Source: Nemertoderma westbladi
Taxonomy: Eukaryota > Animalia > Xenacoelomorpha
Length of the DNA: 35,112 nt
Assembly: GCA_032718475.1 (NCBI GenBank)
Contig: JAUCBJ010005681.1
Coordinates: 1 to 35,112 of the forward strand
Direction: 5' to 3'
Below are positions 1,184 to 31,416 of the stretch, piece by piece. Position 1 is the stretch's first letter, and each line of letters starts with the position of its first letter. The translations under genes were made by a program, and so were the position numbers. Under the pieces are notes generated by a model. It saw only the letters and a program-made list of their open reading frames with translations. It was not told the origin of the DNA and ran no database searches.

Positions 1184-1467
1184 TGTAAAAGCTTTTGCGG
1201 ACATAACAAGTCATTTTCACGCAATGCGCAGAATACTCTAAAATAGCCCTAAAATTGTTCAACTACGCATCGGAAAGAAATTAGAACCAAGATGACGAAA
1301 TCTGTCAGCTGATTCTTTGTGTACGTGGAGGTTTCTTTGTTCAGGCTTATTCAGCCAATCAGAGCAATCTTCCCAGTTATGCCAGTAGAGACCTACCTTA
1401 GGAAACTAGCGCAATGCATTATGGTTATCGTTATTCTGAGAATTAGATTCATCTCAGAATTCTGTAC
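1184..1467 (+). repeat. 5' LTR of element A (portion shared with the 3' LTR; true right end not determined)
   Basis: 284 bp ungapped match to 14375-14658 with 9 substitutions by my count (~3%). Starts with TG. Confidence 0.9.
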
Positions 1468-3379: not shown

Positions 3380-6300
3380 ATGTCTGACACAAAGCAAACA
3401 CTGTCAGATAGTCTCTTAGAAAGAACGATCTGTGACCCAGATCAAAGTATAGAACATCTCAGACCGAAGTCTAAGTCCCCTCCTACTGTAAGAAAGTTTA
3501 TCGCTACAGTAGTGGTATCGGACCCTAGGCTAGTAAAGCACCATAGGTCTATTATAGGCACTAGGGCTCAAGTTAAGCGAGACCAGGAGACGGCTGCCAA
3601 ACAACAACAGCACCCGAACCGAGAACTTATTTCTCAACTGCGTAGTAACTCTAGTTCCGACACCGATGAGTTAACGCCCGAGATCGGAACAAGGATGGAA
3701 GAAGCGGTTTATCCAGATCCACTTCTAATTCTTCCTGGAGCCGTACTCACTAGAGTACTTATCGCTGTAGAAGAACATCAAGCGGATTGGATGAGGAATA
3801 AGAGATCGACCAGGGACCGTTATGCAGGATATCCGATGGAAGAACTAAGGTCTATTGTAGAGACACAATGGAACTTCCCCGTACCTGGACTCCCGTTTAA
3901 CTTATCGGAAGCTGCCTGGGAAGACTTATACCAAATGGGGGTAGTAAGGGACACCCGAGATCCCGCTGTATGGAAGAGGTCAGCAGCAGGATATGTCCAG
4001 GGATTCTTCAACTCCTTGGAAAGAATAGAAATACTATTATTTCAACAACACAAGGACCCCAAGAGCAGGGAGAGATGCTTTACCAAGTGAGAGAACGTAT
4101 CTTGAGGATCAGGTTAATCCTTTCAGCCTTTGAAGAGGCCTCGAAGAGAAGTCAAGACACGTCGTTGCAAGTGTCTGTAAAGACTTGGTTCCAACGAGTG
4201 AATGTTAAAGTCCAGGGAACAACACAATGGAGGGTTCAGCTAACTGAACGCATAACCCACTGAGAATCAACAGATGCAACCTTTTCTCATGTGGAAGGCG
4301 AGGCGGTATCCGAAAAACCTCAGAAGAAGGATGCCATTGACATCTATCTGTCGGATTATCAACGATTTATAGGTGACAAAGAGCTAAGGAGATGTCTAGC
4401 TGGACTTCATCCCAATAGTGAGGGAGCCAAATTCGTGCTGGACTCTTTAGATGCGGAAATATTAGCTGCGGAGCAGGCTAAATTTGATGAAAGCATTCTC
4501 ATCACAATGGACCAAGAAGAACAAATAAAGAAAAGGCAAATAGAAGACCGAAAGGTAGCAGCAGCGGCGGCAGCGGCAGAAGCTGAAAGAAAAGCGGCAG
4601 CGGCAGCGGCAGAAGCTGAAAGAAAAGCGGCAGCAGCAGCGGCAGCGTCAGAAGCTGAAAGAAAATCCCAAACAGTCCTGGACGCCGAGCAAGACATTAT
4701 AAACAAATTGTCTCCCATCCTCCCGATGTGCCATCCAGCTACTACGTTGGCGACTCCCACCTCCGCGGTTGAGTGGATGGATGAGGGACGACGGGGGATG
4801 GAGCAGTTGCTCGGATAGCTCAAGGATAATAAAATTGAGTCTTCCAAACAAGTCCGAGAATTGGAAGGGACTGTTCAATTGTTAAAGGGAACAGTAAGGG
4901 AGAGTAGGTTAGAGCTGCAAGAAGTACACCAAAATATCGCTCTAGAGCACGATAAATTAGTAAATATACAAATGGGTATACCACCACCCCCTGCAACAAT
5001 GTGTCAGCCCGTGAGGTCTGAAGTATTTCATGCGCAAGGTGTGGAGCCTACACGCATCTATACTGCTAGCGAAGTAGAAACTCCAATAGTAAACCCTATT
5101 AATGGTATTAATAAACCTGTTGATAATGATATTCCATACAGATCTGACAATAATCCGAGAAATTTATATACCGATAATTCGATATAAATAATACGATGGC
5201 TCAAGAAAGTTTTACACGTCAGATGGCTAGAATGGAAGCCCGTCAAGCGGTAAAGGTGGGAGAGGAAGTCAAGTTCAATGGGGATGAGATGAAGTGGTTA
5301 CCTTTTAATGAATATTACAAAGATAACATACAGAACTCCGTAATATCCAACGGAGAGAAACTACGATTCCTCATCGAGTGCTTGGAAGGACCTCCCAAGT
5401 TAATGGCGTTAAAGTTTATTGGACATCCGGACGGATTGAGACAAGTTTTGGATACATTAAACATCAGGTATGGTAACAGGACTAACATAGCTAGGTATTT
5501 GTATGCAAAATTAGTAGCGCCCCGAAAGTTTCTTAGCAGCGGGATTATAGAGTTTTCCGATGAGATTCAGGAGATCTGTAGACAGCTAGACTGGTTAGGT
5601 AAGTCTCAGGAATACCAGAGTTCTCTGGTTGTTGGAGCCGTAGCATCAACTTTGCCAAAGGGTGGAGTAGGTACTCGCTGGGACAAAAAGGTTCTCTCTT
5701 TGATGGACCAACAACATAGAGATCCAACCATGGCGGACCTTCTGTCATTCTTAAACAGAGAGGTAAGATTACAACTCCTAAAACAGTCTAGAGAGAAGAC
5801 TCCGGAAAGTAAGGTAAGTGAGAAACCCGTTACTAGGAGGTTACTAGGTAACACCAGTGTGTTATACGGATTGTGGGAGTCAGACGACGTCTTATGACGA
5901 AGATAGTGGCAAGGACACCGAAAGATCTTATTATGTAAACAAAGTTATAAAAGACGTAAGTAAATCTAAGTCTCGAACCAGTGACAAGAGAGAACAGGTA
6001 ACAACTCCCCCTACGTCTCCTAAGAGAATTCATGGAAGAAAGCCTGAAGAAAGAGCTAGAATCCACAATACGACGCAGGTTAAGGTAAGTAACATCAAAC
6101 CTAAGTGTGTATTATGCGACGGGCTGCATCGCTTGAGTGGGTGTGAAGAATTCTTAAGGAAAACATTGAAGGATAGACGTGATGTCATGTGGGATAAACG
6201 GTTGTGCTATAACTGCCTCAGACGAGGACATCAACGAAGAACCTGTTACTCAGAAGCGAGGTGTGCTAAGTGCGGCGCGAAACATCATATTTTGCTGCAA

Positions 6301-6498
6301 ACCGAATTCGATAGGACCCGGACGAGTCAGGTAAGTGAGCCCGAACTACATGTCCAATTCAGTGATGTGAACGACACTGACCAGAGTTCGGAGATGGAAG
6401 GATTCTACACTGATGAATTTTCAGACGAAAATGAATCCTGTTATATGATCAACACAACTGTGTATCGAGCACTTACGTATGAGACTGAAACGGAGTGA
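3380..6498 (+). pseudogene. gag: Disrupted gag of element A (long N-terminal region, BEL/Pao capsid core, three zinc knuckles)
   Basis: Consecutive ORF pieces are split by stops and frameshifts. KFNGDEMKWLPF...SNGEKLRFLIECLEG...RYGN is a DUF1759-like core. CVLCDGLHRLSGC / CYNCLRRGHQRRTC / CAKCGAKHHILL is the BEL/Pao triple knuckle. An (AAAAAEAERK)x3 repeat lies at ~4555-4663. Confidence 0.88.
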
Positions 6499-6582
6499 GA
6501 AGAACCCCGACTGTCTATTCCAGATCGACAGCTCTCTGGTAAAGCGCCAACATCATCTGTCGGTATCCGAGAGTTTCCCGTA

Positions 6583-7200
6583 GTGCAACTGAGGGTCCAT
6601 GGGATAGGGAAGAGCTTAATAGTGAACGCCCTCCTTGACTCCGGCATTACAGGCACTTTTATAGACAAAGACCTAGCCGAAGATATCTTTGCTGGTCAAC
6701 CAAAGTTCCGAACCAAACTGAACCTTTCTGGAATTATGCAGGTTTGGAAATCCACAGTATCCACCAATTATTACATGGGTTCGTTGTCCACTCCCCAGGA
6801 TGAACTAGGAGAAAATAGTGTAAGGTCAGTTAAGATGGTGGCGATAAAGAAATTTGCTACTAGCCAAGTGGAGCCTTACAACTGGGATGAAGATCATTTT
6901 GCCCAGCAATACAACATACCTAGATTCAGTTCCGAATATCCAGGGGTACAAATATTACTCGGCCAAAATGCGCACGAGGTGCTTGAGACAATAGAAAAAC
7001 AGCCTGCTCGACCGCGACCACTCCAGACTTACGCGGGAAGAACAAGAGTAGGTTGGTACTTCACTGGTCCTTCCCACAGGACTTTACAAGAAAGACTCCC
7101 GAGCGAACAAGTCCATCAGGTCAATAAGTGGGAGGAAGACATACGTGAAGAAGGAATCCCAGCTGAGGAAACCCCATACTCCTCAGATAACGACGATATA
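6583..7200 (+). pseudogene. Aspartic protease domain of element A
   Basis: VNALLDSGITGTFI active-site motif, then QILLGQN and RTRVGWYFTGP (BEL/Pao protease end motifs). Confidence 0.85.
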
Positions 7201-9198
7201 CATATACTCAGTCGCTCTAATATAGATCAATGGAGACCAAATCAAATCAAAATCAAATTGCCCTGGGACGATTAATCCAGCTGACATCGCTTCCAGAGGA
7301 GCAACTCCTCAAGAATTGATAGATACTCCAGACTGGTTAGGTGGACCCGACTTCCTAGGTAAAGAAGAGGAGGAATGGCCCCCTCATCTCACCACGGCGG
7401 AGATCAGACAAGCCAAGGGAGCGGAGAAAGTCAAACCGAAAACCCGGATGAGTAAATCAAAGCTGTTTAAACCAGCGCTGGATCTGTCTGTACTACACAC
7501 CGCCAGTGACACCACTGTAGATCTAAAACTCACCCGTGGATGATACCCGAGCTATAAATAAATCCGTTATAGAAATCAAGGAAAGAGACTGGAAATCTAG
7601 AACACCAGACGTCTCGCAAGGACTCTCTCCTCTCCTACAAAGAGCGATAGATCATTATAGCTCCTGGAATCAGCTCTGCAAGGCCATTGTGTATCTGAAA
7701 AGATGTTTCCATCATGACTATTCCAGGACGAAGATCGCTAATGGTACCGCTCCAGTAGTAGCTGAAAAGGTCCATGCTACTAAAGACCTTCCCACTTATA
7801 GAGTGTCTGACAGGTTTCTGACTGAGAAGATCAGTTACCAAGAACATGATGATACCAATAAACAGATACTGAGACTCCTGCAATGTTACGAGGATTCCGA
7901 TAAGTATTTCCTGTTGTTGAGAAATCCACAGATGCGCTTAGGGGTCGTTTCTCTAGCACAATGATAGATGGGTTGATACGTGTCGGAGGGAGATTAACCA
8001 ATGCTCCATTGTCCTTTGACACTAAGTTTCCCATACTCATTAGAAATCTTGAAATACAAATCAAGATGATTGTAGATGTTCACAGTAAGCTTTACCATGC
8101 TGGTAGAGAACGAGTTCTTAGCGAAATTCGAACTCGCTATTATTTCTACAAGCCCCGTAGAGCTCTAAACCAAGTTCTTAGGAACTGTATACCCTGTAGG
8201 AAAGCATTTAGTAGGCCTTTAACACAGCAAGAGGCAGAATTACCTAGGGAACGAGTAAGCTGTTATGAACCACCCTTTACTAATACTGGTGTGGATTTAT
8301 TTGGCCCTATTGAAGTATATCGAGCTAGGACTATAGTCAAGCGATGGTGCGTCATCTTTGTCTGTATGAATTGTAGAGCGATCCATCTAGATATGGTGAA
8401 CGATCTATCTACCAACAGCTTCATACTGAGTTTACGCCGACAAATCGCTCGTTTTGGGACTAGCAACACTATGAGATCTGTCAGAGGAACAAATTTCATT
8501 GGCGCCAATAACGAGATCAAAGATTATGTAAAGGATTTGAACCAAAGACAGGTGGACGATCAGCTAAGAGTAACAGCATCTAGCTGGACCTTCAACGCCA
8601 CCGACGCCCCTCGGTGGAGAGGAAGTTGGGAGAGACTCATACGAAGCATAAAGACCGCATTTCACTTTATAGTGCCATACCGCGCGTATCTCACCGACGA
8701 ACTTTTGCGGACGTTAATGGAAGAAATCGCCGCCTATCTCAACGGGAGACCGCTTATGCCAGTCTCATCTAGTCCCGATACCCTAGAAGCGCTAACACCC
8801 GCGCATTTCCTACTAAAGAAACCTGTAGCTATGCTCCCGCAATCGGAAATAACAGACGGAGACGAATACTGCCGACAAACTTGGCAACTTATGCAGTTAT
8901 TATCCCGTCGTTTCGCTGACCATTTCGAAAAACATTATCTTCCTACGCTACAACTTCGAACAAAGTGGTTTGCGCAGAAAGAAAACATCAGCGCCGGAGA
9001 CATGGTCCTTATCGTGGAATCAGATCTTCCCCGTGCCAGACAGGTCGTATCATCGAGACTCATATATCCGATGATAGTTTAGTGCGATCGGTAGAACTCG
9101 TCGTCATGCGACATAACTTTAAGAAACCTGGAATTGTGTTCGAAACGCAACAAATTAATCGCCCGGTTGGTCATTTATGTTTACTGGAAAGAGATTGA
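7201..9198 (+). pseudogene. pol: RNase H C-terminus plus integrase of element A (frameshifted)
   Basis: PGTINPADIASRG...WLGGPDFL (RNase H end); DGLIRVGGRL; HSKLYHAG...CIPC (HHCC); TGVDLFGP, RSVRGTNF (catalytic D changed to V), WERLIRSIK; DUF5641-like tail DSLVRSVEL...RPVGHLCLL. Confidence 0.92.
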
Positions 9199-9861
9199 GA
9201 GTTGTCCGGTAACTATGGAAGGCAAGAGACTCTTCCCACGACCACCTCCCTAATCCAACAAACATCTAGGGTCTCCCCAATGTAATAACGTTCGGAGTGG
9301 GTGTGTGACCACATTATTTTATTTTTATATTTATGTATGTATTACTATATAATTTTTATTATTATAATCGTTTTCTTTAATTTTATTTAGTAGAATAATA
9401 TTTTAACGATTATTCAGTAGATTAGTGCAATATATTCGTGTTTTATTACTTAATTACTTAGTATAATATATTTCGTTTAACGGTGAAAAATAATTCATTT
9501 TCTCTTTCCTTACTGTCCGTATCATACTATAAATACGTGACTACAGTAAGATGAAATGTCAGTACTTATTAAAGTACAATATCCCGCCCCTACTATACTT
9601 AAGTATTATTGCTAAGTAGAGTATTAGGAATGCAAAGTTCAGATCCTCGTGTCTCGGCTAAACCAAGCTCTGGGTAGACCTTGGAAACGACTTGCCTCTT
9701 CTCACTGACATTGCTTCTTGCAATATTGCTCTCATACCGTATCTTAAATAATACGTATAGTAGAATGATGTCCATTTAACAGTAGCGATTGAAGCACAAA
9801 ATATTTGTTAAACAAATCTGTTAATCAATCTTCAAATAAATCTGTTAAACCATTTGACCAT

Positions 9862-11000: not shown

Positions 11001-14000
11001 ATGACTGAGTTGATAGAAGATGCTCTTGGTATCAGGGAGCGATATACCCTACCACTGCAAGCGTTTATTGATAGTTTGATAAGCGGCGATGCTAGTCAAC
11101 ATACGACGGAAGATGATGGCCATTATATCGAACCACCAATGTCAAAGGAACAGCTCAAGCGTGAATTGGACTATTGGAAATTCACCGCTCGCTATACGCA
11201 TCGTAATGGTATGTATATGGACTTCTTAACTACTGGTCATCATATCGATTTACATGATACCGAAAGTGTAGACACCGAAAGGGAAATGATTCTATTTAAA
11301 TATCATGCCCAGCAGAATCGGAATGATAAACTGAGAATTGAACATGAAAATTCTATTTGAAACCGGATCGAAAGAGAAGATGTTGAAGAACCGTATAAAC
11401 GTAGTGACTTCAACGAATATTTAGAATTCTTGAGAGAAACTTATCTCAATGTGGCTAGTCAACAAAATCTAGAAACTCGATATCCTCAAGGTATACATCA
11501 TAACCCTATGGTAGAACTCAAACGACTCTATTTTACTATGATGTATCTTACCGCCGATCGACCGATACCTGTTGTACCGGATAGCTTCGAATGGATGGAG
11601 GAATATTGTAAAACTGGAGAAAGATCACCTGCATTTTCCCTACAAGACGTGCGTCTTTGGTATTACTGCGATGAATGCCCTAGACCCAATCAACAAACAG
11701 AAAGACATAAAAATCCGCGGAGACGTTGCGCTAAACACAGTTTTACTCGCTATACTTATGGGAGTTTTGAGCAAAACTTATTCAACGTATCACCTACGCT
11801 CACTCGACTCAAACGATCCTTAAATAAACCTATGATCAGAGTTCCGGAATACTCGGTCAGACCTCCTCATTCCCTGGTGCGACCTCAGACTCTTGATCCT
11901 AATAGTATGACGGACCCTCCTGAGTTGTACTCATTGTTCAAAGATCTAGTGTTACCTAAACAATTAGTCGGTGGCACTCCGGTTGTGGGCTCTCTAGATA
12001 TTCGCCCATCCTTCCTAGCCGGATTGGGACATGGACATCTAATATCTCCGTTCAACCCGTATAATCGTCCCGGTTTAACTCCGATACAACCTGTCACCGA
12101 GGTGGAGGAAAGCGTTGTACGAAATGCGCTAGACGCTATTCGGCAAAAGATCAGAAAAGGAACCTACGATTGATTAGACAAAAGTAGCTCTTAACGTTAT
12201 CGAAATGTATGGAGTTGTCACTTATGATATCGAAGGTAGCGTTCCGGTTGGAGAACTGGGAACTACACGAATGATACACATACAAGGACTAGCTGGTTCT
12301 ACCCATGTATTTACTCGAGCGTGTTCCGACGTGATCGATTATTCTTTTGAGACTCTTACAGAGATACAAAAGAAACTCCGACATGGACAATTCGAACTCG
12401 CGCAGCGTTATGTTTCCGATACCGAGCGCAAACTGGCCATGGGTATAGATGGATCTATGCTACCCCAGCCAGTGCTCGAGATGCTGTTTGACGAGAGAAT
12501 CCTTAAAATTGGCTCAGCTGTTTATGGAGATCTCCAAAATGACTTCAGAAACATGGAGAATATCCCCTATCCTTTCGTAGACACCCAGCTGATTGCACCC
12601 TGGGCAGAAGGCCGAGGTTTCTTCCGAACCATGTATGCCAATACATCAAGCGGAATCAATAAAGTACAAAGAATCTCTATCAGACATCTTGCCTTCCAAG
12701 AATACGGATGGAATTTCATTGTTGGAAATCCTGTCAGTTATCAACAAATATATGGAGACCATTATTCTCGATTATATTTTGACAGACCATTAACTGCACC
12801 TGGAGTCTTCTATAGCTTTATGAGTGTTCCACTCCGTCCCTCATTAGCTATATACACTATCTTCGAGAATGCCGCACTTGCCGGTTGGCTAGCCGATGTG
12901 TGCAGTCGCACTATACGCGCTCATCCCTTAGTGCTTGGAACCTAACTCACCAAGCTAGATGAACACAATAAATTCATCCGATTCGAATGCTTTAGGCACT
13001 TTCTGACTCCGTTCCGCAACGTTGATAGTCAGTTCAATGACCACGCTTTGACCAAGCTCAGCTTAAGAGATTCAGCAGCTGAGAAGTTGGACAACGCTGG
13101 ATTTGCCATTTTTAAGGACGTTTGTATACAGAACCTACATTCATCTGTCATACAAAGACCCCGAATCCCCACAGGTTATTCTATTGTGGAAGTTCAAACA
13201 GTGGGTTCACTTGAGGAAACAGCTGTACCTATCTCAGCTATGCAAGTGGAAGTAGAACCAATTTGTTTGGAATCCGAAGACATTCAACCCACACCCCCCA
13301 GGAGTAGCGACAATGATTATGTGTTGGAATGGTATCAGGGTCCACAATGTCTCATGGCATATGATTATCGGCATGCCAATTACATTTCTAGGAAACATTG
13401 CCGATTATGTGCATCACGAGACCACTTTACCCCGGTGGACTCCAGCGAACCCTGCTCCTACTTTAAAGATCAACCTATTATGGAGATTTATTGTGCGTAT
13501 TGTAGACTCAACAATCTACACATCTTCGCCGTCTGCCCCTAATTTATGACTCAATGTCACCATTGTCAGTTCAAAGGACACGCAAGTTTTGATTGCACTT
13601 TCAACCGAGATCTGGAGAGCATAGACGAAATAGTTACCCTGCGCTACATCAGAATCACGTCACCGATACTATCCAGAACATGCGTATGAAGGAATCTATG
13701 CATTTCACCCATACCTCTTTGCATCCATCGAACAAAATTCTCGCATTCCCAGTTACGAACTGATGAAGCGTGTTGGCAAGAATATTTCATCTAAATATGT
13801 TTGCAAATATCTTAGGAATATTAATCCCAATAACCTGAATTCCTATAACTTGATCAACTTCATTCATCAAGATCAGGAATACGGCGACTTGTTCATAAAC
13901 TTGCATCCTGAATTACAAGAAATTCATAGACGACCCTATGAATATAAAGCCAGAGAACGCGAATTAGAGAGAACAATTAAACCGCGGAAATTTCTCACTA

Positions 14001-14296
14001 CACACAGTCAACCTACCGCTGTCGTACAAACGACCCATCAAGGACCGGTAAGAGCTGCCATCCTGAAACGAGCTCTAAAGGTTGTTCTCCCTCATTCCAC
14101 CGATGTTGACATCGATCAACCGGGTACCTCGACCGGCGGATACACCGACCGTAATCCAAAACCTTCTGATGCAATCGTATTGCACCCTTCACCCCGGAGT
14201 TATAGCCCTCCTAGTAAAGTGGCTCGCCCCAAAGAGAAAAAGACTCTTACTAGTCTCAAAAAACTTCGTAAACGCCGTTCACGAAAGAAGGACTAA
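11001..14296 (+). pseudogene. Accessory ORF3 of element A (~1,100 aa reconstructed): Cys/His N-region, DEDDy 3'-5' exonuclease, three zinc knuckles, basic tail
   Basis: ORF pieces join through single in-frame stops (11358, 12171, 12943, 13540) and about two frameshifts. Motifs: YDIEG (ExoI), LPQPVLEMLFDERILKIGSAVYGD (ExoII), FVDTQ, IYTIFEN (ExoIII-like); CRLCASRDH, CAYCRLNNLHIFAVCP, CHHCQFKGHASFDC. Confidence 0.82.
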
Positions 14297-14365: not shown

Positions 14366-14374
14366 TGGGAGCGG
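14366..14374 (+). other. Polypurine tract of element A
   Basis: TGGGAGCGG lies directly before the TG of the 3' LTR. Confidence 0.7.
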
Positions 14375-14658
14375 TGTAAAAGCTTTTGCGGACATAACAA
14401 GTCATTTTCACGCAATGCGCAGAATACTCTAAAATAGCCCTAAAATTGTTCAACTAAGCGTTGGAAAGAAATTAGAACCAAGATGACGAAATCTGTCAGC
14501 TGATTCTTTGTGTACGTGGAGGTTTCTTTGTTCAGGCTTATTCAGCCAATCAGAGCAATTTTCCCAGTTATGCCAGTAGAGACCTTCCTGAGGAAACTAG
14601 TGCAATGCATTATGGTTATCGTTATTCTGAGAATTCGATTCATCTCAGAATTCTATAC
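14375..14658 (+). repeat. 3' LTR of element A (apparently truncated on the right)
   Basis: Matches 1184-1467, then switches abruptly to unrelated GC-richer sequence. There is no terminal CA and no full copy of the upstream flank GCCTC. Confidence 0.88.
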
Positions 14659-16105
14659 GCCGCGCACGGGCTGGCTTCGGCGGATGTAACTTCAGTACAC
14701 CAGGTAATTGGTAAGGGCTAAAGTCGATTCATAATCAAAAGGACATTTAAAATTGGCAGGTTAAACTGCTAAAGGTCTGAAAGCGCGAACAGCCTCGTAC
14801 AATCACCCAACCCATCGTCATTCCGTCAGGCCGCACACCACTTGTAACACCCTGTTGGCCGGTGGTCCTGTAGTACTCTCGCCGTCATCTCGTTTCGACT
14901 CGAGCTCCTCCCCCTGTACCAATCCGCGTTCCTCGTCCTCAACTGACCTGCAGCCCATGTGACAGATCTGGTGTAGCGGGCTGGTACTGCTGGGTCGCAG
15001 CCTCCCGAATATTTAAGCCCATCTCACTGTGTTCTCTCGCCTCCCGAACTTTAGGGCATCCCAAGTTTGCTCATCGTCGTCGCGTCATCGGTGATCTTGT
15101 CGTCAACATATTGTCATCTCCGGTGATGTTTTCACTGTTCAGCATAGTTTTCCACTAGGACAGGATCCCAGTTGGCCTGAGATCCCGGCCATTTGACTTT
15201 GGTGATGTTCCCTATGTGCGTGCTGGCTAATGCAATGGCTGACTGGTGGTTGGACTGACTGACTTGGCCGTAGGCCAGTGAAATAAAAGAGTTTGTTTGG
15301 TGAACTTTACTATTAATTGACTGACTGATGAATATGGTGTACCGGTAGTGATGATAGCACAGCATAGTGGAGGAAAACTATTTCTCCTCTACTACACTGA
15401 ATAAATGCCAACTGATTGCACAATACATGTGATCATTAATATAAAGGGGTAAATACATTGCCTACCTACATGCTAATACGTTTTAGTGACCTGTGATCGA
15501 TACACTCTAAGATGCCACATGCAGCCCTCCCATTGGCTGCCTTATCATGCCATAAACCTGCCTCCCTATGGCTTCTGCTAGACTCTGCCCACCGAGGTAG
15601 ATTGTTAGTCCACTGCCAGGCTAGCCCTATTGAATCATACCTTTGCTGGTATGCCCTATTGGATACCTTGATGGCCAACTTGGTAAATCGGCTCCCCCCA
15701 CACTTTGTGGGTTGGAATTGCTGAGCGGAATGGATCCGCTAACAAGACACAATCATTGCGAAAAAATCATTCAAGGGAAAATACAATTTTGCGATTTATA
15801 TTTATATCGCGACATTAGAGACTACCTGTACTTCACACATGATATCTCGTGAACGAAACAAGATATGTAAAAACTGTTTTTAGATTTGGAATCACCAATA
15901 CATTCGATTCAGATGGGATGGATATACTTAAAAGGATAATTTTGGTACATATTATTACTTTAAATAAATTTCAGTAATATTTGAACCCTCAATGATCTCA
16001 AATATGTTTGTATGTTATTATATAAAGTCGAATTTTATAGTTATCCAAAGACAAGCTACTTTCAACTCCTCCCAGCTTCTTAACCTTCTTAGAACAAATC
16101 CATCA

Positions 16106-20485: not shown

Positions 20486-20535
20486 TGAAAAATTAATTGT
20501 ATTTTTAATATTATTTTTTGTTGTTTATAGCTAGC

Positions 20536-21206
20536 TGTGACGGGATCAGGGGATCCCGACCGGTTTATTTCGTTACGCGTCACCGTGTAATTGAGAAGAA
20601 GATAGTTTGTGGTTGTCGTTGTGATATTGTCATATGTTAACGCAAATATAAAATAACTGATATAAATATGATAGCACAGTTGAGCAAGGAATGTACAGAT
20701 AAATGTTAATAGATTGTACCGGTAGTAATGGTGACGTTAGGTGACGGTACGAAATGTCACTGGTGCCCACTGTGTGACTGAGATAACTGACCGGTAATAT
20801 AATTAACTGGTAATATATATTCACCCTTACTCTACTGTGGCCTTACTACCTAGTGGATGCTCTCCCTCGCCCCTCATTGGCTAACAACCTAATTCTCGGC
20901 TCCCACCTCTGTGGGAGTGCTTCCCCCCCCCCCCCCCCCCGCTGCTGTTACTTTCCCTTCTCAAGGGTGTCAAGTGTGTAGTGCTATGTCTAGTCTCCCG
21001 TCCTCTTGCCATAGTCAATTGGCCCCCAGTCCCAGTAGCTAGTTGGAAAAAGGGTTACATGACTATAGTACTTACTTTGATTATATTGGTTATATGATTA
21101 TATTCTAATGATTATTACATACGTACCTACTAATTGCACTTTTAATTAAATTTGCACTTAGGAGTTCGTATTACTTCACATGTGGTGCCTTCCAGGCATC
21201 CCCACA
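20536..21206 (-). repeat. Complete 3' LTR of element B (671 bp)
   Basis: Minus strand TGTG...CACA termini, immediately preceded by a PPT. 20536-20966 matches 30901-31318. Confidence 0.9.
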
Positions 21207-21217
21207 TCTCCCCCTCC
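21207..21217 (-). other. Polypurine tract of element B
   Basis: GGAGGGGGAGA abuts the LTR TG, a few bases after the ORF3 stop at 21223. Confidence 0.85.
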
Positions 21218-21222
21218 AAGTT

Positions 21223-23755
21223 CTAGTTCGCTCCTCCTGTCTTTGGGAACCATCTCAGTTCCTTCCCTTTGTCGTCGTCCTGTCTTGGTCGCTTTCTAGT
21301 TGTCGCCGCTCCCTTGTTCTTGTCCCCCTTAAGGTTCCTGATCCTTGCCGTTACTTCCCTACTGATTCCCGTCGTCGACTCCTTGGGCGCTGGTGTTATT
21401 AGCTCCCGGTATCGCTTCGCAGGTGGCCCCTCCGAATGCCCCTGCTGCTTCCCCCTAGTGGCGTCCCATAGGATCACCTTCATGGCCCGTGGCACATGCT
21501 CCGCCAAGAAATCTCTGAACTCTCCCCGGTTCTCTGGTGTCCACCTGTCTAAATACCTCTGTGTATTTATAACTCCGGCATATGACGCCGCCATTGACAC
21601 TTCCTGATAAGTAAACGGAAGTCTCCGTTTGATGATTTCCAGGTGGGCCTCCTGGTTAATATTAAAGAAGCCCCACCGGAATTCCTGGGCCTTCATCCGC
21701 TGCTGCGTCATGATGCCATCCAGTCGCATTGGCGTCCATAGTGCCCCCGGAAGTTGCACTTAGAACACCGGTTGTGCAACCATGGACACGCCCCCATCCT
21801 ATGACTCGACTCGCGGCAGTAGAGGCAACTCGTCCCATTCTGGAATCGGTACAAGCAGCTCCTTTCCTGGTGAGCAAGCCTCCCGCAGTGATCGCAGCCG
21901 AGTACCAATGCCTCCCGCCCCATGTCGTCTTTCGTCCCAAGCGATCTCCTCGGTCTATGGAGTTGCTGGTAAGCGAACTTCTGGATGTTAGTGTCCCTGT
22001 CCATGCCTATCTCCTCGTCTCGCCTGGGCATCGTCTCTCCGAATACTACCCGTGGTGCCGTTCCTGGTTGCTCGCCCAACCTGATGGTGCTCCCCGCGAA
22101 ATCCATCGCCAGCTCCTCATGCACCCAGGCCCGCTTGCCGGGTCTATCCCAGAAGGCCCTCGCCCCGCTGGCCGTCACCACTCTCCCGCCAACCCAGTCC
22201 GTGTCTGAGTGGCCGATTCTCCCGATGGGCGGCATCTCTCCGAACTCGTCGTCGTCCTCGTCCTCCTCTGGCAGTGGCTCCAAACCCGGTACTGTGTCCC
22301 TTCCCATCTTGGCTCTCGCCCGTGACTCTCCATCCTTCCAGTTCCCCTGGCCTTCTCTTCGCGAAATCACCCTCGGCGCCCGCTGGTATGGGCATCGTCT
22401 GCAATCCCGATGTTGACTGTTTCAGCGATCCTTCCGCCCACCCCAATTCTCGCCCTAGAGACTCGCCCGAACTCCCTGATGTCCAGTGTAGATCGTCCAA
22501 GGCCGCCTGGGCCTCGAACCCATAGCCCTCTCCTCTAGCTTCCGCCTCTCTTTCTTCTGCCTCCATCCTTTCTCATCTAGCGATTTCTTCCAATCGCTTC
22601 GCCTCTCGTCTATCCGCCTCTAGCTGCTCCCACATCTGATATGGTGTATCCACCTCCCTGTCTACTAGATATCAGCAGTTATAGTATACCGACTCGCCCT
22701 TCAGCCCCGGGTGGTCTACCAGACCCTCGAAAGCCACTTTGAAGGCTCTTCTGTAGTTCAGGGGTGATCCCAATAGCAGAAATGCCATTGGTTGTCTTTC
22801 AATAACCACAGTCATGAATAGGTTTAGCAAACCTATCATTATCCAGTCCTCCTGCAGGATATATCGCTTCTGATATATCTTTATCGCTCCTCTCCGGAAT
22901 TGATACACCCCTTGCTTCCCCGGCCTCGCTCCCCACTTCAGCGAGTTCGCCAACTCCGCTCCATACTCCTCCCTGAATTTACCCCAGTCCACTGGCTTGT
23001 GGCATACGAGCCCCATTAGCTGGCCCATCGCCACCGCTCCACAATGGCCCGTGTTCTCTACTAGTCCCAACTCGGCTGGCCCCGACATAGCCATGTAGAC
23101 CGTTTGCGTGTCCAGGAGGTTGGGGGTCTCCGGACTGATGATCCTCTCCGCATCGTCGCGGATCACCGATCCCACCTTTATCGTCGACTTCTCTCTTACT
23201 ACGTTCTGCACCGCCCTTGGCAACCGGTTTAACTTCGGCCCATTCTTCTTCCCATACGTTCCCAGATCGAACAGGAATATATCCCCATTTGGCGCGGCCA
23301 AATGCAGGAGTATGGTTCTGGCCGACCCCGCCGACCCTCTTCTTGAACCTTCCTCGTCTTCCACGGTCCCTTCGTTGTCTAGGACCATGTATCCTCCCCT
23401 GCTGACGGACTCTACAAACCTCTTCCAGTCCTTTTTCGGTGGTTCCCTTGGATACTTCGGTATCCCGAACTTCGCCTCGTCTCCCTTTACCACGTAGTGG
23501 AAATGCTCGAAGATCGCGTTGTCTAGCGATGGTGTCCCGTAGGTCCCGACCAGCCGCTGCTCGTGCACCTCCCTGAAATGGTCCTGCAGCGCTCGCGCCT
23601 TGTGACCCTTCTCTAACCGCTCGTAGTATTCTTTTGGTGAAATCTACCAGTATCTCCTTTCCTCCCAACTCCGCCTTTCTCTTTCTAACAAGTTTCTCCG
23701 CCATTTCGAACTCTCCCGATCGCTCACCTATAAGGGGGCTTTTACCAAGGCTCAA
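21223..23755 (-). pseudogene. Accessory ORF3 of element B (~840 aa reconstructed): DEDDy 3'-5' exonuclease, acidic linker, three zinc knuckles, basic tail
   Basis: MVLDNEG (ExoI), LLHLAAPNGDIFLFDL, LPRAVQNVVREKSTIKVGSVIRDD (ExoII), NLLDTQ, QKRYILQED (ExoIII-like); CDHCGRLAHQERSC, CLYCRESSHRMGACP, CSKCNFRGHYGRQC. Broken by TGA stops and frameshifts. Confidence 0.85.
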
Positions 23756-24112
23756 TATAAGTGAGTGATGTAGTTAGGATGGTCTGTACGGTCCGATAAT
23801 GGCCTATCTCTCTCTGAACGCTAGGTTATTGCCGAATTTTCTTATTCTACTCCCTAAAAGGTGCCAAATTTCATAAATTCCCTAATTTTGTCAGTTACTT
23901 TTATTATGTTCTAGAATATCCTGCCTACTGTTACCATAATTTGTCTAATTTTGATTTTAATATTTTATTTTAAATCCTACAACTGTATCAGTATCTATTA
24001 ATGGATTATTTATTTTAATCCCCCTTCTGACCTATTCTACGGGCCGTGCAGTACAGTAGTATGTCTCGTGCGGCCTATACGATCTGTCCTGCTGTACCCA
24101 CGTGCCCCCCTC

Positions 24113-24925
24113 TCACTACTCACTACTAACTCTACTAACTTTTACTAACACACTAACTCTTACTAACATTCTAACTAACTTCTACTAACTCTTACTATGT
24201 ACCCTCTTACTAACTCTTCTACTAACGGTACTACACGTACCGTTTTACTAACTCTTCTACTAACGGTACTACACATACCCTCTTACTAACTCTTCTACTA
24301 ACAGTACTACACGTACCCTCCTACTAACTCTTATACTAACTCTCACTAATGGTACTACCATTAGTAATTAATCTTACTAACTAACTCCACTAACTCTTAC
24401 TAATGGTACTACGTACCCTCTTACTAACTAACTCCACTAACTCTTACTAACGGTACTACGTACCCTCTTACTAACTAACTCCACTAACTCTTACTAACAG
24501 TACTACGTACCCTCTTACTAACTAACTCCACTAACTCTTACTAACGGTACTACATACCCTCTTACTAACTAACTCCACTAACTCTTACTAACGGTACTAC
24601 GTACCCTCTTACTAACTAACTCCCCTAACTCTTACTAACGGTACTACGTACCCTCTTACTAACTAACTCCACTAGCTCTTACTAACGGTACTACATACCC
24701 TCTTACTAACTAACTCCACTAACTAACGGTACTACGTACCCTCTCACTACTAACTCCACTATCTAATGGTACTATGCACCCTCTTACTAACTAACTCCAC
24801 TAACTAACGGTACTACGTACCCTCTTACTACTAACTCCACTAACTAACGGTACTACGTACCCTCTTACTACTAACTAACTCTCTAACTAACTTCTATCTG
24901 CCTACTTACTTACTACGTACCTACT
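24113..24925. repeat. CTAA-rich minisatellite (47-bp core unit, shorter variants at the edges) inside element B
   Basis: Unit TTACTAACTAACTCCACTAACTCTTACTAACGGTACTACGTACCCTC repeats with a 47-bp period from ~24374 to ~24720. Confidence 0.92.
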
Positions 24926-25069
24926 ATGTACTATCACCCTCCTTTCTCTTACTCTCTTTCTATTATTTTTATTGTTTTTATTTTTTTTATATTTTGTGTG
25001 GGAAGGGCGTCTCGCCCTCAATCCCACCCCCTCAGTCCAACACTTGGATGACTAAACTCTATGAGCCCC

Positions 25070-26570
25070 CTATCGTAGTACTAGGTAAAGTGCTGCTCCG
25101 TATGCTTCCAATGACGCATCGGAGAACATGTGTAGATCCAGATCCGTCATGTCCCCATCCGGGAAATACACGCGTGGCATGCTGTACGTCCCCATCTGTT
25201 CTAAACTCTCCGTCCACTTGCTCCATTGCTTGCTGATCTCTTCCGGGACCTCTGTATCCCATTCGTCCTTTAGCTTATATACTTTCTTAAGTATCTGTTT
25301 CCCCGTGACTAACAGTGGGGATGCTAGGCCTAGGAGATCGTATATCCTTGCTATGTATGATACATAGCCCCTCTTTGTGTGGATGTCCGCGCCCTCCTGG
25401 CTCAGCTGATACTTGAACTCGTCTGTCTCCCGGTTCCACACGATCCCTAGTGCCTTCTGGTGGGACTCTACTCGTTTGTCCGCCATGTTCTGTCCCTTGG
25501 CTGTCGTGGGGTTATTCATGGTCGACTCTGGCCTCCTGTCCTCTATGGCTTTCATAAACTCTTCTGAGCTGGATTTGAACTTGGTCAGGTTAAACCCGGA
25601 TCCCTTCAGGATGTCGCGAATCTCGCGCCCTGTATCCAGTAGTTCTTTAACCGTGTTTCCAGACTCCATTCCGTCGTCTACTTAGAGGCCGCGTCGAATC
25701 ATATTGACGGCTTTGGCGCTATATTTATCCTCTTTCCCCTCTACTGTATCCCTCACAGCCACAGTCGTCGTAAATGAGGACGACTTAGCCCCCATATTCT
25801 GCACCACCATCTTGTACATCGGTATTGTCGATGGTTCCTCGTCACCGTTGTACCATAGGAAGCGCTGGCTGTCACTATCCTCCTGCGTCACACGGACTTG
25901 GTTGAACATGCCTTCAATGTCGCAGGTGAAGGCGTGCCTCCCGTTTCTGAATCTCAGTAGGACCTTGATTCCTGAGTTATAGATATTGGGGCCTTCCAGC
26001 AGGTAGTCGTTTAGGCATTTGCCGTTGGTCTTAGCCGATGCGTCAACTTCCATCCGTAATTTACCTTTCTTTGGATCTAGAGCCACGTGAAGTGGCAGAT
26101 AATAGGTCCTATCCGTGTTCGGTTCGTCGACCGGTAACTCCACGGCCCATCCTTTCTCGATATACTTCCTTATCGTCTTGTGGATGTACTCATCCTTTTC
26201 GGGGCTCCGCCTCAGCGTTTGCTTCAGTTTGCGGAGCCTCGTGAGTACCATTCCCTTGTTATCTGGTAGCGGTAATTTTGGTTGTTTCCACACCATCCCT
26301 ATGGTGTACTCCCCCTCGTCGCATTTCATCGACTCCTTTACGCTTTGTATTGCCTGTTTATCTTCTACCGAGGTTCCCACCTCGGTCTCTATCAATCCCT
26401 CAAAGTCCTGTCTGAGTAGTCTCCTGAGCTGCTCCTCCGCTCCTTCATCTTAAATCTCCCTCATAGTTCCCGCGAACATGCACCCTGATGTCTCCGACAT
26501 CCTAAACGGAATCTTGGTTCTAATTGAGCCGCTTATCGTCCACCCGAATGGTGTTAAAATTGCCACCTGG
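25070..26570 (-). pseudogene. pol: Protease tail, reverse transcriptase and RNase H N-terminus of element B
   Basis: AILTPFGWTISG; YYLPLH...KLRMEVDASA...LNDYLLEGP...LLRFR...DIEGMFNQV...QRFLW; catalytic YVDD reads *VDD (TAA at 25682-25684); KALGIVW, TKRG...YDLLGL, LHMFSDASLEAYGA. Confidence 0.93.
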
Positions 26571-29500
26571 TCACGCTGTCTGTCTTCGTCTTGCCAATAT
26601 CTGCAGTTCATGGTCTGATGAAGTGCGTTCGTGTGTAATTGGCATTTGTTGTTTGGATTATAGCCGTCCTTATACAGTGCGCTGCGTATCGCACTTGCAT
26701 TCGTACCTAGATCCCTACTATTCTTATTGTTTGGTTTCAGCCTACTGGGCGTGTTGGGGTTATGTTTGTTTATGTTGTTATTTTTCCCCTGTCCGCTCCA
26801 TGGTGTGGCCCTACCCCCGGCTACATGTGGACTAGTAGTCCCCTGCATCGCCACGTATGGCAGCGATTGTCTGAGCTTTGGCAATGCGTTCGCCGTGTTG
26901 TGTTCTGGTTTCGGCCTGTTATATTTGGTCTTTGGCCCCTTTCCCAGACTATCCTCGCTATAGACTGGGTCTGTGATCAATTCGGCTTCGTAGTTGAGGA
27001 AGATCGACATTTCTTCTAGGCGTGGTTCCGCACGCTTCTTCTCACGGGTGGAGAAAGCGATTTTTCTCCATTTATTGCGCAGCCAGATCGGCAGCGCCTG
27101 CGCTATCGTGGTGATGTTATTAGATGTGTTGAGTTCATATGGCGCGTCTAGCATCTTCAACACGATCAGTGCCTTCTCGACTTTGTTCGCAAATGTCTTT
27201 ATGCTAACGGGGTTATCCTGTAGGCCACCCGATGTTATACTCATATATCCTATTGATAGTGATATCTCAGAGTCTGCCGGATGATCTTGGCTGGGTGCCC
27301 GTACTCCCTGTCCAGGGCCCGCCATGCAGTCGTGAAGCCACCCTCGATGCCCTGGTACTGCCTCACGATGTCATACTCTGGGCCTCCTGTATATACCTTT
27401 AGATATTTTAGGCACTCCGCCTGCGTCAGGTTCTTGGTCAATATCTCGTTGCTGTACATGCGACGGAATTGCAGGTATTCTACCAGCCTACTTCCATCGA
27501 ATTTAAATGGCTCCACGGGTGGTAGCTCGATCCTGGTCTTGAGTGCATCGATTAATGTAGCCATTCCCATCGCCTGTGCTTCCAATGGGTTCGAAGGATG
27601 CTGTACAGATTCTCCCGTTGGGTGCGGTCCGCCCATCCTGTTCGTTGCTTTCCGTTGTGTCGGATATACCATTGGGGGTAATGGCCCCCTCCATATTTCC
27701 GTGTCGCAAGATCTGTTCTCGTCCAGGGGATTCGATGTTCTCATTCCTGTTTGAATATATTGTTGATATTGCAATGGGGGAATGTCACCCTGTCCCCCCC
27801 CCCCCCCCAACGATGGTATGTTTTGTACTGGGGTTGATGTTAATATATTGGGGCCCATACATCTACCTGCAATATCCCCCTCAACCGGGTATTTGCATAT
27901 ATTTGTTCTTGGTTGTTTATATTGCCTATCTGCAATATCCCCCTCAACCGGGTATATGTTATGTCCCTGCATGCTATAGTCATACTTTTGTGCTGGTACA
28001 GGTATAGGCCTATCCACTTCTTGCCTACCTACTGGTATGTACTCCGCAACTTCTGGATCTAATCCTGCCGTTCGCGCTACCCTATCGCCTACACTATCTC
28101 TCCCAGCATGGCCTATAGTATGTGCAGTAAGGCCTACAGTATGTCCTGCGCTCTGCATGTGCCCTTCCGGACCGAAGTTTAATCTTCTCGAATCTCAAAT
28201 CTCCCTGCGACTACCGTTATCTCGATCGGCAGCTATATCCCCTCCACTTTCGATCCCCTCCACTATTCTCGTCCTCGTACCGGTACGCCCTGTACCCTTC
28301 TCTCGGCGTATAGTACACCTCGCCAGGTTGCGTCTCTCCGGGACGACGGCAATCTCCCAGAGTTCGACCCCACCGCCTCTCCAACTCCATCTCTACTACC
28401 GACGGCTCGCTATCCGTCCTCGCTCTCCTGTCGCTCGGAACGACACTTCTTCTACTCTCTTCTCTCCTTCTTTCTGCAGTGTAGCATCCCCGCTCGTGAG
28501 ATCTCTCGTCGACCTCCCAGTTCAACTCCACTGTTTTTCTTCCCTCTTCTGACTGGCCTCGACATCTTGTCGCTCGCCCTCTCGTGACGCCACGGTCTCT
28601 CTACCCGGTCGCACGCCGATGGGGATATTCCTAATCCCCCTATTACTCTCCATCGTCGGGTGCTGCGGTTCACCTAACTCGCCCCGCGCATTGTCCGCCG
28701 ACGCCTGTGGGACACTCTCTGCCCCCCCCTCTTGCCGCTAATCTCTCGTTGTGGGGCTCCTGTAGCCCCCCCCCCCCCCCCACTCGCCACCTATCACTTC
28801 ACTATCTCTCACTTCGCCTCTGCGTCCCTCTCTAGTCGACGCACTTTCCCTACTGTGGCTGGGTCTATTCACCCCCGCCTCTCCATCTATCACTGCGTGG
28901 CCTGGAAGGCTCCCGTCGGGTTGACTCACCCCCACTACTCCCTGCGTATTAATTACGTGGCCTACCAGGCTCCCGTCGGGGTCTCTCACCCCGTTACCCC
29001 CTGCGTACTGATTATGTGGCCTGGCAGGCTCTCGTTGGCCGGGCCACCTACATCTGCCGCGTTTATATTGATAGCACCAGTATCAATATTATTTTCTAAA
29101 TTATTTAAATTATTAGAATTATTCTGTGCTGAATTCGGATTATTATTTAAATTATTCTGTATATTTGAATTAGAATCGGGATTATTTTGCTTGTTTGAAT
29201 TAAAATTATTATTTAGATTATTTTGCGTATTTAAATTTAAATTATTTGAATTATTTTCTACATTTAAATTAGGATCGTTCGGATTTAAATTACTATTATC
29301 GGGCAAAGTATTATTTCCTGCAATGAAAGATTGATTAGGGTTATCTACTACGGTACTATTAATATTGACGCCTTCTAGCGTATTATTATTACCCCCCCCC
29401 CCCCCCCCCCCCCCCGCCCGTACGGTTACACCAGTCTTGGGTCGGTCGTCCGGTCCCTGTAAGTGGGGTATTAACAAAAGTTTCCATTACTTCTGGCTCC

Positions 29501-30833
29501 TCGTAAACACTACCCGAGCCAGCCTCACTCTCTGATAGCCCCAACTGCGCCAGTTCTAATCGGCGCTTCTGTTTGGCCTGATATTGCATAAGCCCCCTCA
29601 ACCGGGCGTGCATGTCATCCCGCACATGCTTTCCCGTTCTCTCTCTCTCCCTATCCTCTCGCAAACTCTGCTCGGCCAACTCCGCCTCTCTTGCAATCCT
29701 CTCAAGCCGCCTCGCCCCATGCTCTTTTCGCTCGCTCGCCCCTCTCGCCTCATGCTCTTTACGCTCGCTCTCCTCTCTCGCCTCACGCTCTTTACGCTCA
29801 CTCTCCTCTCTCGCCCCTCTCGCCTCATGCTCTTTATGCTCGTTCGCCTCTTTCGCCTCTTGCTCTTCTCGCTCCTTTCCTTCCCTTATTTCTATCTCCT
29901 CACACTCTCTAAAGTTTCTCGCGACCCTCTCAGCCCTCTCTTTATTCTCTCTCGCCAGCTCTCTCTCTCTTTCTAACAACGCAGTTCCCTCTTCCAACTG
30001 CCTCTCTGGTCTAGCGCCACCATGTCTAATTGACACGCCAGATCTATTTCTAACACCCTTCTTGCTTTTGCGGAGGATGTAGCGGACTTGTCGGTCGTGA
30101 CGGACCCCCGTCGCCCCTCTGTCCTACTAACTTTCCCCCGCTTTCTGGGGTTCTCGCTAACTGACGAGACCGAATCCTCGGGGTTAATCTCGGATTCGCC
30201 TTCATGTGGGTCTGCCCAACCCACTAACTTAATTCCCCTAGCATCCACTAAATACGGCCCTATGTACACTACTTGGGGCTCCATTATCCCGGACTGCCAC
30301 AGTTCCAATAGTTCGGTGGCGACCCCTCTCGCTCTCTCACTGGCTAGTTCTCCCTGCCCGAAACGAACTAGGTATCTGAAATGTTTATTCGACTCACCTA
30401 GTCGCTGGCTCAACTTCCCTTGGTCTACCTTTGCTCCCTCTCTGGCCTCCCTGAGCTGTTTCTTCGTCACGTTGTAGGCTCGTCGGAGCCGATCACTGGT
30501 TCCGACGTCCTCGTCGCCGACCTCTCCTCCTCCCCTCCTGGTTTGGCGTCGTACCGGCGGCCCCACCGTCGCCGTTCCGGGGGGCTGTCCGTCGCCCTCG
30601 GCCTGTGGCTGGCTGGCGACATCGGTACTTCGACCGCCGTCGTGCATCGACTCGTCCCCTCGTTGTAGTAGACGGCCGCCCTCCGCTTGGGCTGCCGGAT
30701 CGTCTCTCTCCGGCGAATCCGGCGTTGCGGGTCGATACCGTCGTGTTGCGGCCTCACGGATCATTTCGTTGGTATCGTCCGGAGTCCGTGGCGGTGTTCT
30801 TTCTCCCTCTAGGTCTCGGGGCTCTGTGCTCAT
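26571..30833 (-). pseudogene. gag: Disrupted gag of element B
   Basis: ATG at 30833, 67 nt inside the 5' LTR. Contains INPEDSVS, an E/R coiled coil, ELPPVEPFKFDG...LKYLKVYTGG...AWRALDREYG (DUF1759-like), ALPIWLRNKW and one surviving knuckle CQLHTNALHQTMNC. Several frameshifts. Confidence 0.85.
28890..29040. repeat. ~60-bp tandem repeat (about 2.5 copies) in the gag region of element B
   Basis: GTGGCCT...AGGCTC(C/T)CGT(C/T)GG recurs at ~28897, ~28957 and ~29016. Confidence 0.75.
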
Positions 30834-30900
30834 CTTTTTTAACTTTTTTCTTTTGGTGGCTGGCAGTCACAGTTTAGCAGTGGTACTCGGAATTTCGTAC

Positions 30901-31318
30901 TGTGACGGGATCAGGGGATCCCGACCAGTTTATTTCGTTACGCGTCACTGTGTAATTGAGAAGAAGATAGTTTGTGGTTGTCGTTGTGATATTGTCATAT
31001 GTTAATGCAAATATAAAATAACTGATATAAATATGAAAGCGCAGTTAAATGTTTAAAACAGATAAATGTTAATAGATTGTACCGGTAGTAATGGTGACGT
31101 TAGGTGACGGTACGAAATGTCACTGGTCCCCACTGTGTGACTGAGATAACTAACCTGTAATATAATTAACTGGTAATATATATTCACCCTTACTCTACTG
31201 TGGCCTTACTACCTAGCGGTTGCTCTCCCTCGCCCCTCATTGGCTAACAACCTAATTCTCGGCTCCCACCTCTGTGGGAGTGCTTCCCCCCCGCTGCTGT
31301 TACTTTCCCTTCTCGAGG
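30901..31318 (-). repeat. 5' LTR of element B, missing the first ~240 bp of U3
   Basis: Matches 20536-20966 with scattered substitutions, a poly-C length difference and one rewritten ~15-bp patch. Similarity stops at 31318. Confidence 0.9.
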
Positions 31319-31384
31319 TAGCTTGACCTCTAACCTCTTTTGTGTGGCTCTTTGGGGCTGTATGTTGTCCCCGTTATTGGTTGT

Positions 31385-31416
31385 GATACGAGGTTAATTT
31401 TGATTAACCTCGTATC
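31385..31416. repeat. Perfect 14-bp-stem hairpin
   Basis: GATACGAGGTTAAT-tttg-ATTAACCTCGTATC. Confidence 0.85.

Follow-up and report, generated by a model that had tools for sequence, protein, structure and literature searches.

DEDDy-like third genes (open reading frame 3, ORF3) have been described for the bdelloid rotifer retroelements Juno, Vesta and Athena/Terminons (PMC5408684, PMC6431247, PMC5718144, PMC6338049). A nuclease of related type joined to several zinc knuckles is known from a cellular enzyme, T. brucei RNase D (TbRND), in which a DEDD exonuclease is combined with four CCHC knuckles that are needed for RNA binding and for efficient cleavage; TbRND trims guide-RNA tails, and its overexpression depletes guide RNAs (PMC7797062). 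For the BEL/Pao retrotransposons (Belpaoviridae), the ICTV profile speaks of env-like third genes only and does not mention an exonuclease (PMC8742986). The window analyzed here is a stretch of 35,112 nucleotides (nt) from Nemertoderma westbladi, positions 1 to 35,112 of contig JAUCBJ010005681.1 (assembly GCA_032718475.1). It contains a decayed BEL/Pao copy, element A, whose ORF3 very probably encodes, at 12178–12942, a DnaQ-fold, RNase D-like exonuclease domain, with zinc knuckles downstream; the layout recurs in a second, distant BEL/Pao family represented by element B. No exonuclease–knuckle ORF3 that bears a D-E-D-E-y site and is shared by two distant BEL/Pao families seems to have been described so far in the literature searched.

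ORF3 of element A extends from an ATG at 11001 to a last stop at 14294–14296 as three long readings, in three frames in succession. It is interrupted by TGA at 11358, TAA at 12943 and TAA at 13540, and the frame changes near 12171–12200 and near 13634–13686. It begins about 1.8 kb downstream of the integrase reading, which ends near 9200, and lies in the position of env. An earlier note on this DNA, made from the sequence without database searches, had described a decayed ORF of about 3.3 kb at this place, ending 70 nt before a purine run, and both its position and its broken state are borne out. Its parts are as follows.

11001..12170, forward strand: N-terminal part of ORF3, about 390 codons with a stop at 11358; a domain without family match, with CX2C-X16-CX2H at 11667
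12178..12942, forward strand: predicted RNase D/WRN-like (DnaQ-fold) exonuclease domain; D12226, E12232, D12529, Y12853, E12865
12946..13398, forward strand: segment past the exonuclease, conserved (purifying selection against fragment C), then an acidic linker
13399..13596, forward strand: three Cys/His knuckles, one atypical and two of CCHC type; the stop at 13540 separates knuckles 2 and 3
13634..14296, forward strand: C-terminal part of ORF3, with a basic tail (K/R in 13 of the last 25 residues)

The outer parts of the protein resemble nothing in the collections searched. The N-terminal part matches no entry of Pfam, NCBIfam or the PDB, and it is no more similar to element B than expected by chance (1472 of 2000 shuffles), no counterpart being detected there; its CX2C-CX2H segment is present, with a spacer of X16 rather than the X15 first reported. 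The C-terminal part is likewise without a family or PDB match, and its comparison between A and B does not establish similarity (64 of 2000 shuffles). An HRDC domain was not detected in ORF3 by Pfam.

ORF3 shares its location between pol and the 3′ long terminal repeat (LTR) with the env-like third genes of Belpaoviridae (PMC8742986; PMC3118150), from which it differs in having a predicted nuclease and knuckles in place of a signal peptide and transmembrane segment. Neither of these Env traits was found in a hydropathy scan, which is not a dedicated predictor, in agreement with the first reading of the sequence. The maxima over 19 residues are 1.04, 1.19 and 0.58 in the three parts of A and at most 1.46 in B, and the N-terminus of A is acidic. 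Because the highest value in A is 1.19 and the N-terminus is acidic, a signal peptide or transmembrane segment is not predicted; thus, judged by its sequence, ORF3 of element A occupies the env position and yet is not an Env.

Assignment of the exonuclease domain is based on several profile comparisons. Of the 18950 models in NCBIfam, TIGR01388 rnd is the top match of the 12178–12942 frame (E 0.0014, residues 97–141). Reference profiles were prepared from 83 distinct bacterial PF01612 domains, comprising 7 RNase D, 40 WRN-like, 30 short RNase D-like and 6 Pol I rows. With the RNase D profile, the frame ranks first among the 154 stop-free frames of the window (22.1 bits, E 8.1e-7), and its score was reached by none of 1000 shuffles; the DnaQ-fold match on which the earlier note had staked its reading of 12205–12890 is thereby supplied. 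The WRN-like profile places A first and B second of the 154 frames, weakly (4.6 and 3.7 bits; equaled in 1 of 1000 and 0 of 1000 shuffles), and neither A nor B is detected by the short RNase D-like profile or the Pol I profile. In hhalign comparisons A is the top one of 29 long frames with each of the three reference sets tried, and the A+B alignment joins ExoI to ExoII across about 95 columns (E 2.5e-5). Neighbors in the ESM Atlas point the same way: those of A are assigned to PF01612 (0.88, no more than a lead), as are all 30 named matches of B (top 0.93).

A structural model agrees with the assignment. Guided by 68 reference rows that had been truncated ahead of ExoIII, AlphaFold gave a predicted local distance difference test score (pLDDT) of 62.4, and the top fold matches are all DnaQ-type nucleases, the best with Z 12.7 and a root-mean-square deviation (rmsd) of 4.0 over 154 aligned residues. 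Foldseek returned DnaQ-type rows at E 0.002–0.07 for this model and no PDB row at E ≤ 0.001, in a structural check of the kind suggested in the earlier note. The guided model illustrates the fold and does not prove it, because the DEDDy rows steer it and the trimming was chosen after MAFFT had misplaced A. A single-sequence model of A reached a pLDDT of 30.5, and its best fold match (Z 5.0) involved helices only.

A number of results weigh against the assignment. Pfam, also proposed as a check, recognizes no exonuclease family in A or B, and PDB searches with A, B and the A+B alignment gave no relative. None emerged from a search of 5.8 billion proteins with a 503-residue read-through of A, with B and, against longer proteins, with the A+B alignment, or from a search of 1.84 billion representative proteins with A. 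The RNase D profile scores nothing with B (64 of 1000 shuffles equal or better), and the pairwise similarity of the A and B exonuclease regions is not significant (184 of 2000 shuffles; BLASTP E 0.075). In viral and metagenome contigs no relative of ORF3 was found, and phages and plasmids gave rows at E 0.6–8 only, one of which is an RNase D aligned over the ExoII stretch (E 4).

The putative catalytic motifs lie where they were first reported. ExoI of A is YDIEG, with Asp at 12226 and Glu at 12232; ExoII is LKIGSAVYGD (12502–12531, Asp at D12529), the best-scoring stretch in all profile matches; and FVDTQ follows at 12574. Their counterparts in B are LDNEG at 23382, IKVGSVIRDD at 23181 and LLDTQ at 23118. 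The Asp and Glu of ExoI and the Asp of ExoII are invariant in a 70-row alignment whose references were trimmed to begin near ExoI, and these three residues can be regarded as firm. The earlier note had placed the protein in the DEDDy family and named no ExoIII motif. Its RNase D/DnaQ-like character is upheld by the profiles, but it appears not to be DEDDy in the strict sense: YxxxD is absent after FVDTQ within the first 300 residues of A, and YxxxE is present instead, the best candidates being YTIFE (12853–12867) in A and YILQE (22863) in B. The active site thus appears, from the motifs, to consist of D-E-D-E plus Y in both elements. Another stretch of A, RPLT...YSFMS, is a less likely ExoIII; it lacks acidic residues, its predicted structure is strand and loop, and it aligns elsewhere in B.

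The case for this ExoIII is stronger in B, where YILQE scores highest of all windows when these are compared with 65 ExoIII blocks from the references (5.0 against −0.4). YTIFE of A and the B motif form an ungapped alignment of 20 residues in which the aromatic residue is kept twelve positions upstream; YTIFE lies inside a long helix (221–248) predicted without reference rows, and one global hhalign run of three places it on the Y and D of the references. Counting against it, YTIFE is joint third among the windows of A compared with the reference blocks, and the ExoIII register of A is uncertain, its placement by MAFFT shifting with the settings. In addition, a residue other than Asp takes the place of the fourth ligand, and TbRND without that Asp is almost inactive (PMC7797062). 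Retention of four acidic residues and the Tyr over the distance between A and B nevertheless favors a working enzyme, and the exonuclease is probably catalytically active, with Glu as the fourth metal ligand.

Three Cys/His clusters follow the exonuclease at 13399–13596, as first noted, though knuckle 1 is atypical: the spacings in A are C-X2-C-X4-H-X9-C, C-X2-C-X5-H-X4-C and C-X2-C-X4-H-X4-C, and only knuckles 2 and 3 fit the CCHC pattern. Element B has three at 21896–21726, all regular CCHC, and a basic tail with KRPR. Read in all six frames, the window contains the CCHC pattern eight times: twice in gag of A, twice in ORF3 of A, three times in ORF3 of B and once with an internal stop. The knuckle blocks of A and B align beyond chance (0 of 2000 shuffles; tblastn E 7.7e-5). 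In the PDB, Air2 is the best match of the A+B knuckle profile (E 1.4e-4), followed by Lin28 and HIV nucleocapsid, the resemblance to retroviral nucleocapsid being at E 0.039; the knuckles of B match the TbRND knuckle domain weakly (E 0.094). Air2 is a subunit of TRAMP that works with the Rrp6 exosome. The match to Air2 includes the five-residue C-to-H spacing of knuckle 2 of A; Air2 differs in having no nuclease domain, and matches rich in Cys and His are prone to composition bias. By analogy with T. brucei RNase D, it is quite likely that the knuckles serve RNA binding.

Recurrence and conservation of ORF3 indicate that it is no isolated insertion, the outcome that would have undone the first reading. 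Element B, on the reverse strand, carries a broken ORF3 of the same layout, whose exonuclease region (frame 22675–23643) is colinear with that of A at 22% identity; gag of the two elements is about 25% identical. That the ORF3 layout recurs in two distant BEL/Pao families is a plain observation. Part of the stretch is present in three listed DNA runs and in no listed RNA run. Further copies of the A family were found among contigs from four DNA runs; these represent three samples at most, and the window itself may come from one of them. These contigs reach all 30 bins of 1000–16000 and 28–30 of 30 bins of 12150–13700. The latter interval is covered by 6403 contigs, most of them 80–95% alike, with a single indel row; the whole 15-kb stretch has 307 indel rows, and none of the 12 listed out of these 307 falls within a reading frame. 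The other copies aligned over 12150–13700 do not share the stop at 12943. For 40 listed rows out of 366 differences, 21 fall at third codon positions (p 0.01), and the five catalytic codons contain none of the 40, counts that speak for these rows. Linkage of pol and ORF3 is seen in A and B; contigs this short cannot show it in other copies.

A further copy, fragment C, allows a test of selection. Its mismatches to A at codon positions 1, 2 and 3 are 20/110, 9/111 and 52/111; pN is 0.078 and pS 0.865 over 62 codons, as expected under purifying selection. It must be set against this that the test spans the segment after the exonuclease and not the catalytic core. As judged from these comparisons, ORF3 is a family trait under purifying selection and not a one-off insertion.

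Juno and Vesta are gypsy-like LTR retrotransposons. They are not BEL/Pao elements, and Athena/Terminons are Penelope-like, whereas A and B belong to BEL/Pao. The rotifer ORF3s are alike in being RNase D-like exonuclease third genes downstream of pol, without a transmembrane segment and with one Asp replaced by Glu; their motif is stated to be DEED (PMC5408684), in contrast to D-E-D-E here, where the third residue is Asp in both A and B. Compared by description, no multi-knuckle fusion is reported in the accessible accounts of them, in which a Cys-His-Cys motif is given for Vesta2/5 only. TbRND resembles ORF3 in that tandem CCHC knuckles come after an exonuclease of RNase D type, and its structure (PDB 7c42) matches the guided model with Z 10.3 and rmsd 3.9 over 156 aligned residues, although PDB searches gave no sequence match between the exonucleases. 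It differs in being cellular, with four knuckles, a 28-residue linker and a canonical DEDD site; ORF3 has three, joined in A through a linker of about 150 codons, as well as extra N- and C-terminal parts, and is encoded by a mobile element.

Among the fold matches listed, EXD1, EXD2, WRN, Nibbler/Mut-7, Egalitarian and diDNase/NrnC have the fold of the guided model at Z 10.8–12.7 and share the KxG..xxD style of ExoII. Their identity to ORF3 is 8–17%, and with rows so close together and a model so biased no donor can be named. We know of no knuckle fusion like that of ORF3 among these proteins.

The earlier note had mentioned exonuclease ORF3s from nematode Cer elements and from bdelloid rotifers, and knew of no combination of exonuclease and triple knuckles. 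The rotifer precedent is real (PMC5408684). No report of an exonuclease ORF3 in Cer or other BEL/Pao elements was found in the literature searched, which left most subscription journals, Repbase and Dfam outside. The word “exonuclease” does not occur in the accessible text of PMC3118150, and that of PMC7998251, PMC8220671 and PMC7968707 holds nothing on BEL/Pao exonucleases. An exonuclease joined to several knuckles is present in TbRND (PMC7797062). Exonuclease capture, in rotifer elements, and the exonuclease plus multi-knuckle architecture, in TbRND, each have precedent.

The two elements in which ORF3 is found are made up of the following remains.

1184..1467, forward strand: 5′ LTR of element A, remaining first 284 nt; GCCTC at 1179–1183 just before
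5178..6498, forward strand: gag of element A, broken; DUF1759 (PF03564, E 2e-11) and nucleocapsid knuckles (zf-CCHC_4, E 0.011)
6499..9200, forward strand: pol remains of element A (protease, end of the RNase H region, integrase), from Pfam matches and motifs
14367..14374, forward strand: polypurine-tract-like run of 8 nt, GGGAGCGG, abutting the 3′ LTR at 14375
14375..14999, forward strand: 3′ LTR of element A, with TG...CA ends, then GCCTC at 15000–15004
20535..31420, reverse strand: element B, decayed BEL/Pao copy with ORF3 layout as in A
21223..23703, reverse strand: ORF3 of element B, broken (exonuclease, knuckles, tail); its stop abuts the purine tract and 3′ LTR
25070..28194, reverse strand: gag-pol remains of element B, with DUF1759 (PF03564, E 6.8e-7), reverse transcriptase region and Peptidase_A17 (PF05380, E 1.1e-28)
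33153..33489, reverse strand: fragment C, a diverged copy of A 12876–13208 (74% of nt), from nucleotide comparison

Element A spans 1184–14999, limits that follow from the GCCTC that precedes 1184 and recurs after the CA at 14999 as a 5-bp target duplication. A direct repeat of 284 nt (1184–1467 and 14375–14658) has 9 mismatches; the distal part of the LTR has no second copy anywhere in the window and is thus deleted from the 5′ LTR. With that end gone, no tRNA primer-binding site was identified in A. The run GGGAGCGG sits 70 nt past the ORF3 stop, where a polypurine tract of about 10 nt would be expected. In pol of A, Pfam recognizes Asp_protease_2 (E 0.013), Integrase_H2C2 (E 4.8e-8) and DUF5641 (E 3.7e-9). 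Reverse transcriptase and most of RNase H are gone near 7270, beside motifs that we take to be those of pol; the corresponding frames of B find no match in 3301–11000 at E 0.5. The LTRs of B agree solely over their last 432 nt (92.6%), no target duplication was found, and one end may be rearranged; an integrase frame was not seen in B. The remaining order in both elements, A lacking reverse transcriptase and B an integrase frame, fits protease, reverse transcriptase, RNase H, integrase. DUF1759, DUF5641 and Integrase_H2C2 in A, and DUF1759 and Peptidase_A17 in B, are presumably BEL-type markers. Together with the LTRs and target duplication they confirm the family first named for A: it belongs to BEL/Pao (Belpaoviridae), and this copy is dead.

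Other features of the window may be recorded here. Even after its deletions element A measures 13.8 kb, more than the 4.2–10 kb stated for Belpaoviridae (PMC8742986). It has a 5′ leader of 2 kb and a long N-terminal gag region (3377–4818) with alanine-rich AAAAAEAERK repeats, and loss of the region near 7270 may reflect a non-autonomous subfamily that keeps ORF3. Its spacer between pol and ORF3 includes a direct repeat of 147 nt (9834–10193, spacing 213 nt, 71%); the spacer is covered by family contigs and may contain a promoter or splice signals for ORF3. In B, the spacer upstream of ORF3 holds a tandem array with units of 38–47 nt (24108–24915), and the gag region an Asn-rich low-complexity frame (28986–29486, reverse strand). 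Between the two elements lies an uninterrupted frame of 448 codons (16106–17452, reverse strand) with an N-terminal F-box (F-box-like, E 1.1e-12), which looks like a host F-box gene without introns and may include leucine-rich repeats. An AT-rich element at 18504–19585, with inverted ends of 73 nt (79%) and internal subrepeats, is like a miniature inverted-repeat transposable element.

Small RNAs hold down animal retrotransposons, and to our knowledge element-encoded counter-defense enzymes have barely been described. We tentatively suggest, at somewhat less than even chances and by analogy, that ORF3 is a long-kept BEL/Pao accessory gene whose predicted exonuclease would trim or destroy the small RNAs of host silencing. 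The knuckles would grip single-stranded RNA and the 3′ end of the bound RNA would be fed to the RNase D-fold active site for 3′–5′ trimming; silencing guide RNAs or their precursors would be trimmed or removed, and the small-RNA defense of the host blunted. Because ORF3 is separate from Gag-Pol and ends in a basic tail, it may act in trans on cellular RNA; we lean toward a trans-acting protein that is made independently of Gag-Pol and may work in the nucleus. If the enzyme is active, guide RNA or its precursors would be the target in about half of that case. The most specific version, in which an old BEL/Pao lineage has built a one-chain RNA-decay machine from a D-E-D-E-y nuclease and Air2-like knuckles that destroys piRNA or siRNA guides, is rather unlikely. 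Two considerations tell against the counter-defense proposal: 2′-O-methylation of mature animal piRNAs hinders 3′ trimming, and in rotifers the presence of ORF3 shows no clear link with copy number in the accessible text (PMC5408684).

It is also conceivable, though unlikely, that the nuclease is weak or dead and that ORF3, like EXD1 or Egalitarian, is an RNA-binding adaptor that escorts the genomic RNA of the element, in the manner of CERV, for protection, nuclear export or transport. Replacement of the fourth Asp and the basic C-terminal tails, common to A and B, would suit such a role, as would the proximity of the guided model to Exd1 (Z 11.9, rmsd 4.0, 155 aligned) and Egalitarian (Z 10.8, rmsd 3.6, 154 aligned), and CERV of Cer1, a nuclear Cys-rich accessory protein, is required for export of genomic RNA (PMC10309623). 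The four acidic residues and Tyr kept in both elements are difficult to reconcile with an adaptor, since pseudo-nucleases usually lose such residues; EXD1 is termed inactive in PMC5408684. Equally improbable is an active nuclease serving the element's own replication, which would trim the 3′ end of the genomic RNA, the tRNA primer or the cDNA, or proofread reverse transcription, with knuckles that act like nucleocapsid. A replicative role has been suggested for the rotifer ORF3s (PMC5408684, PMC6431247), the knuckles do resemble retroviral nucleocapsid, and some members of the family, WRN for one, are DNA exonucleases. Yet ORF3 lies 1.8 kb downstream of pol without being fused to it, and how it would enter particles is not evident; gag and pol alone suffice in most BEL/Pao elements (PMC8742986); and the Pol I-type profile gives no match (hhalign E 0.27). 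That ORF3 is a host gene captured once and passively carried, or a set of look-alike motifs without the exonuclease fold, might have been supposed from the absence of significant matches in Pfam and plain homology searches and from the low confidence of the single-sequence model. Purifying selection, the near absence of indels in the family contigs, the controlled profile matches and the repetition of layout and position in B largely refute this explanation, which is very improbable.

Exonuclease third genes had previously been published, in the literature searched, for rotifer elements only, without a function shown. The ORF3s of A and B extend this theme to another retroelement family, BEL/Pao, and provide a defined protein for assays; the Glu that apparently occupies the fourth metal position offers a natural test of DEDD chemistry. 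If the proposed attack on guide RNAs is true, an animal retrotransposon would encode an enzymatic suppressor of silencing.

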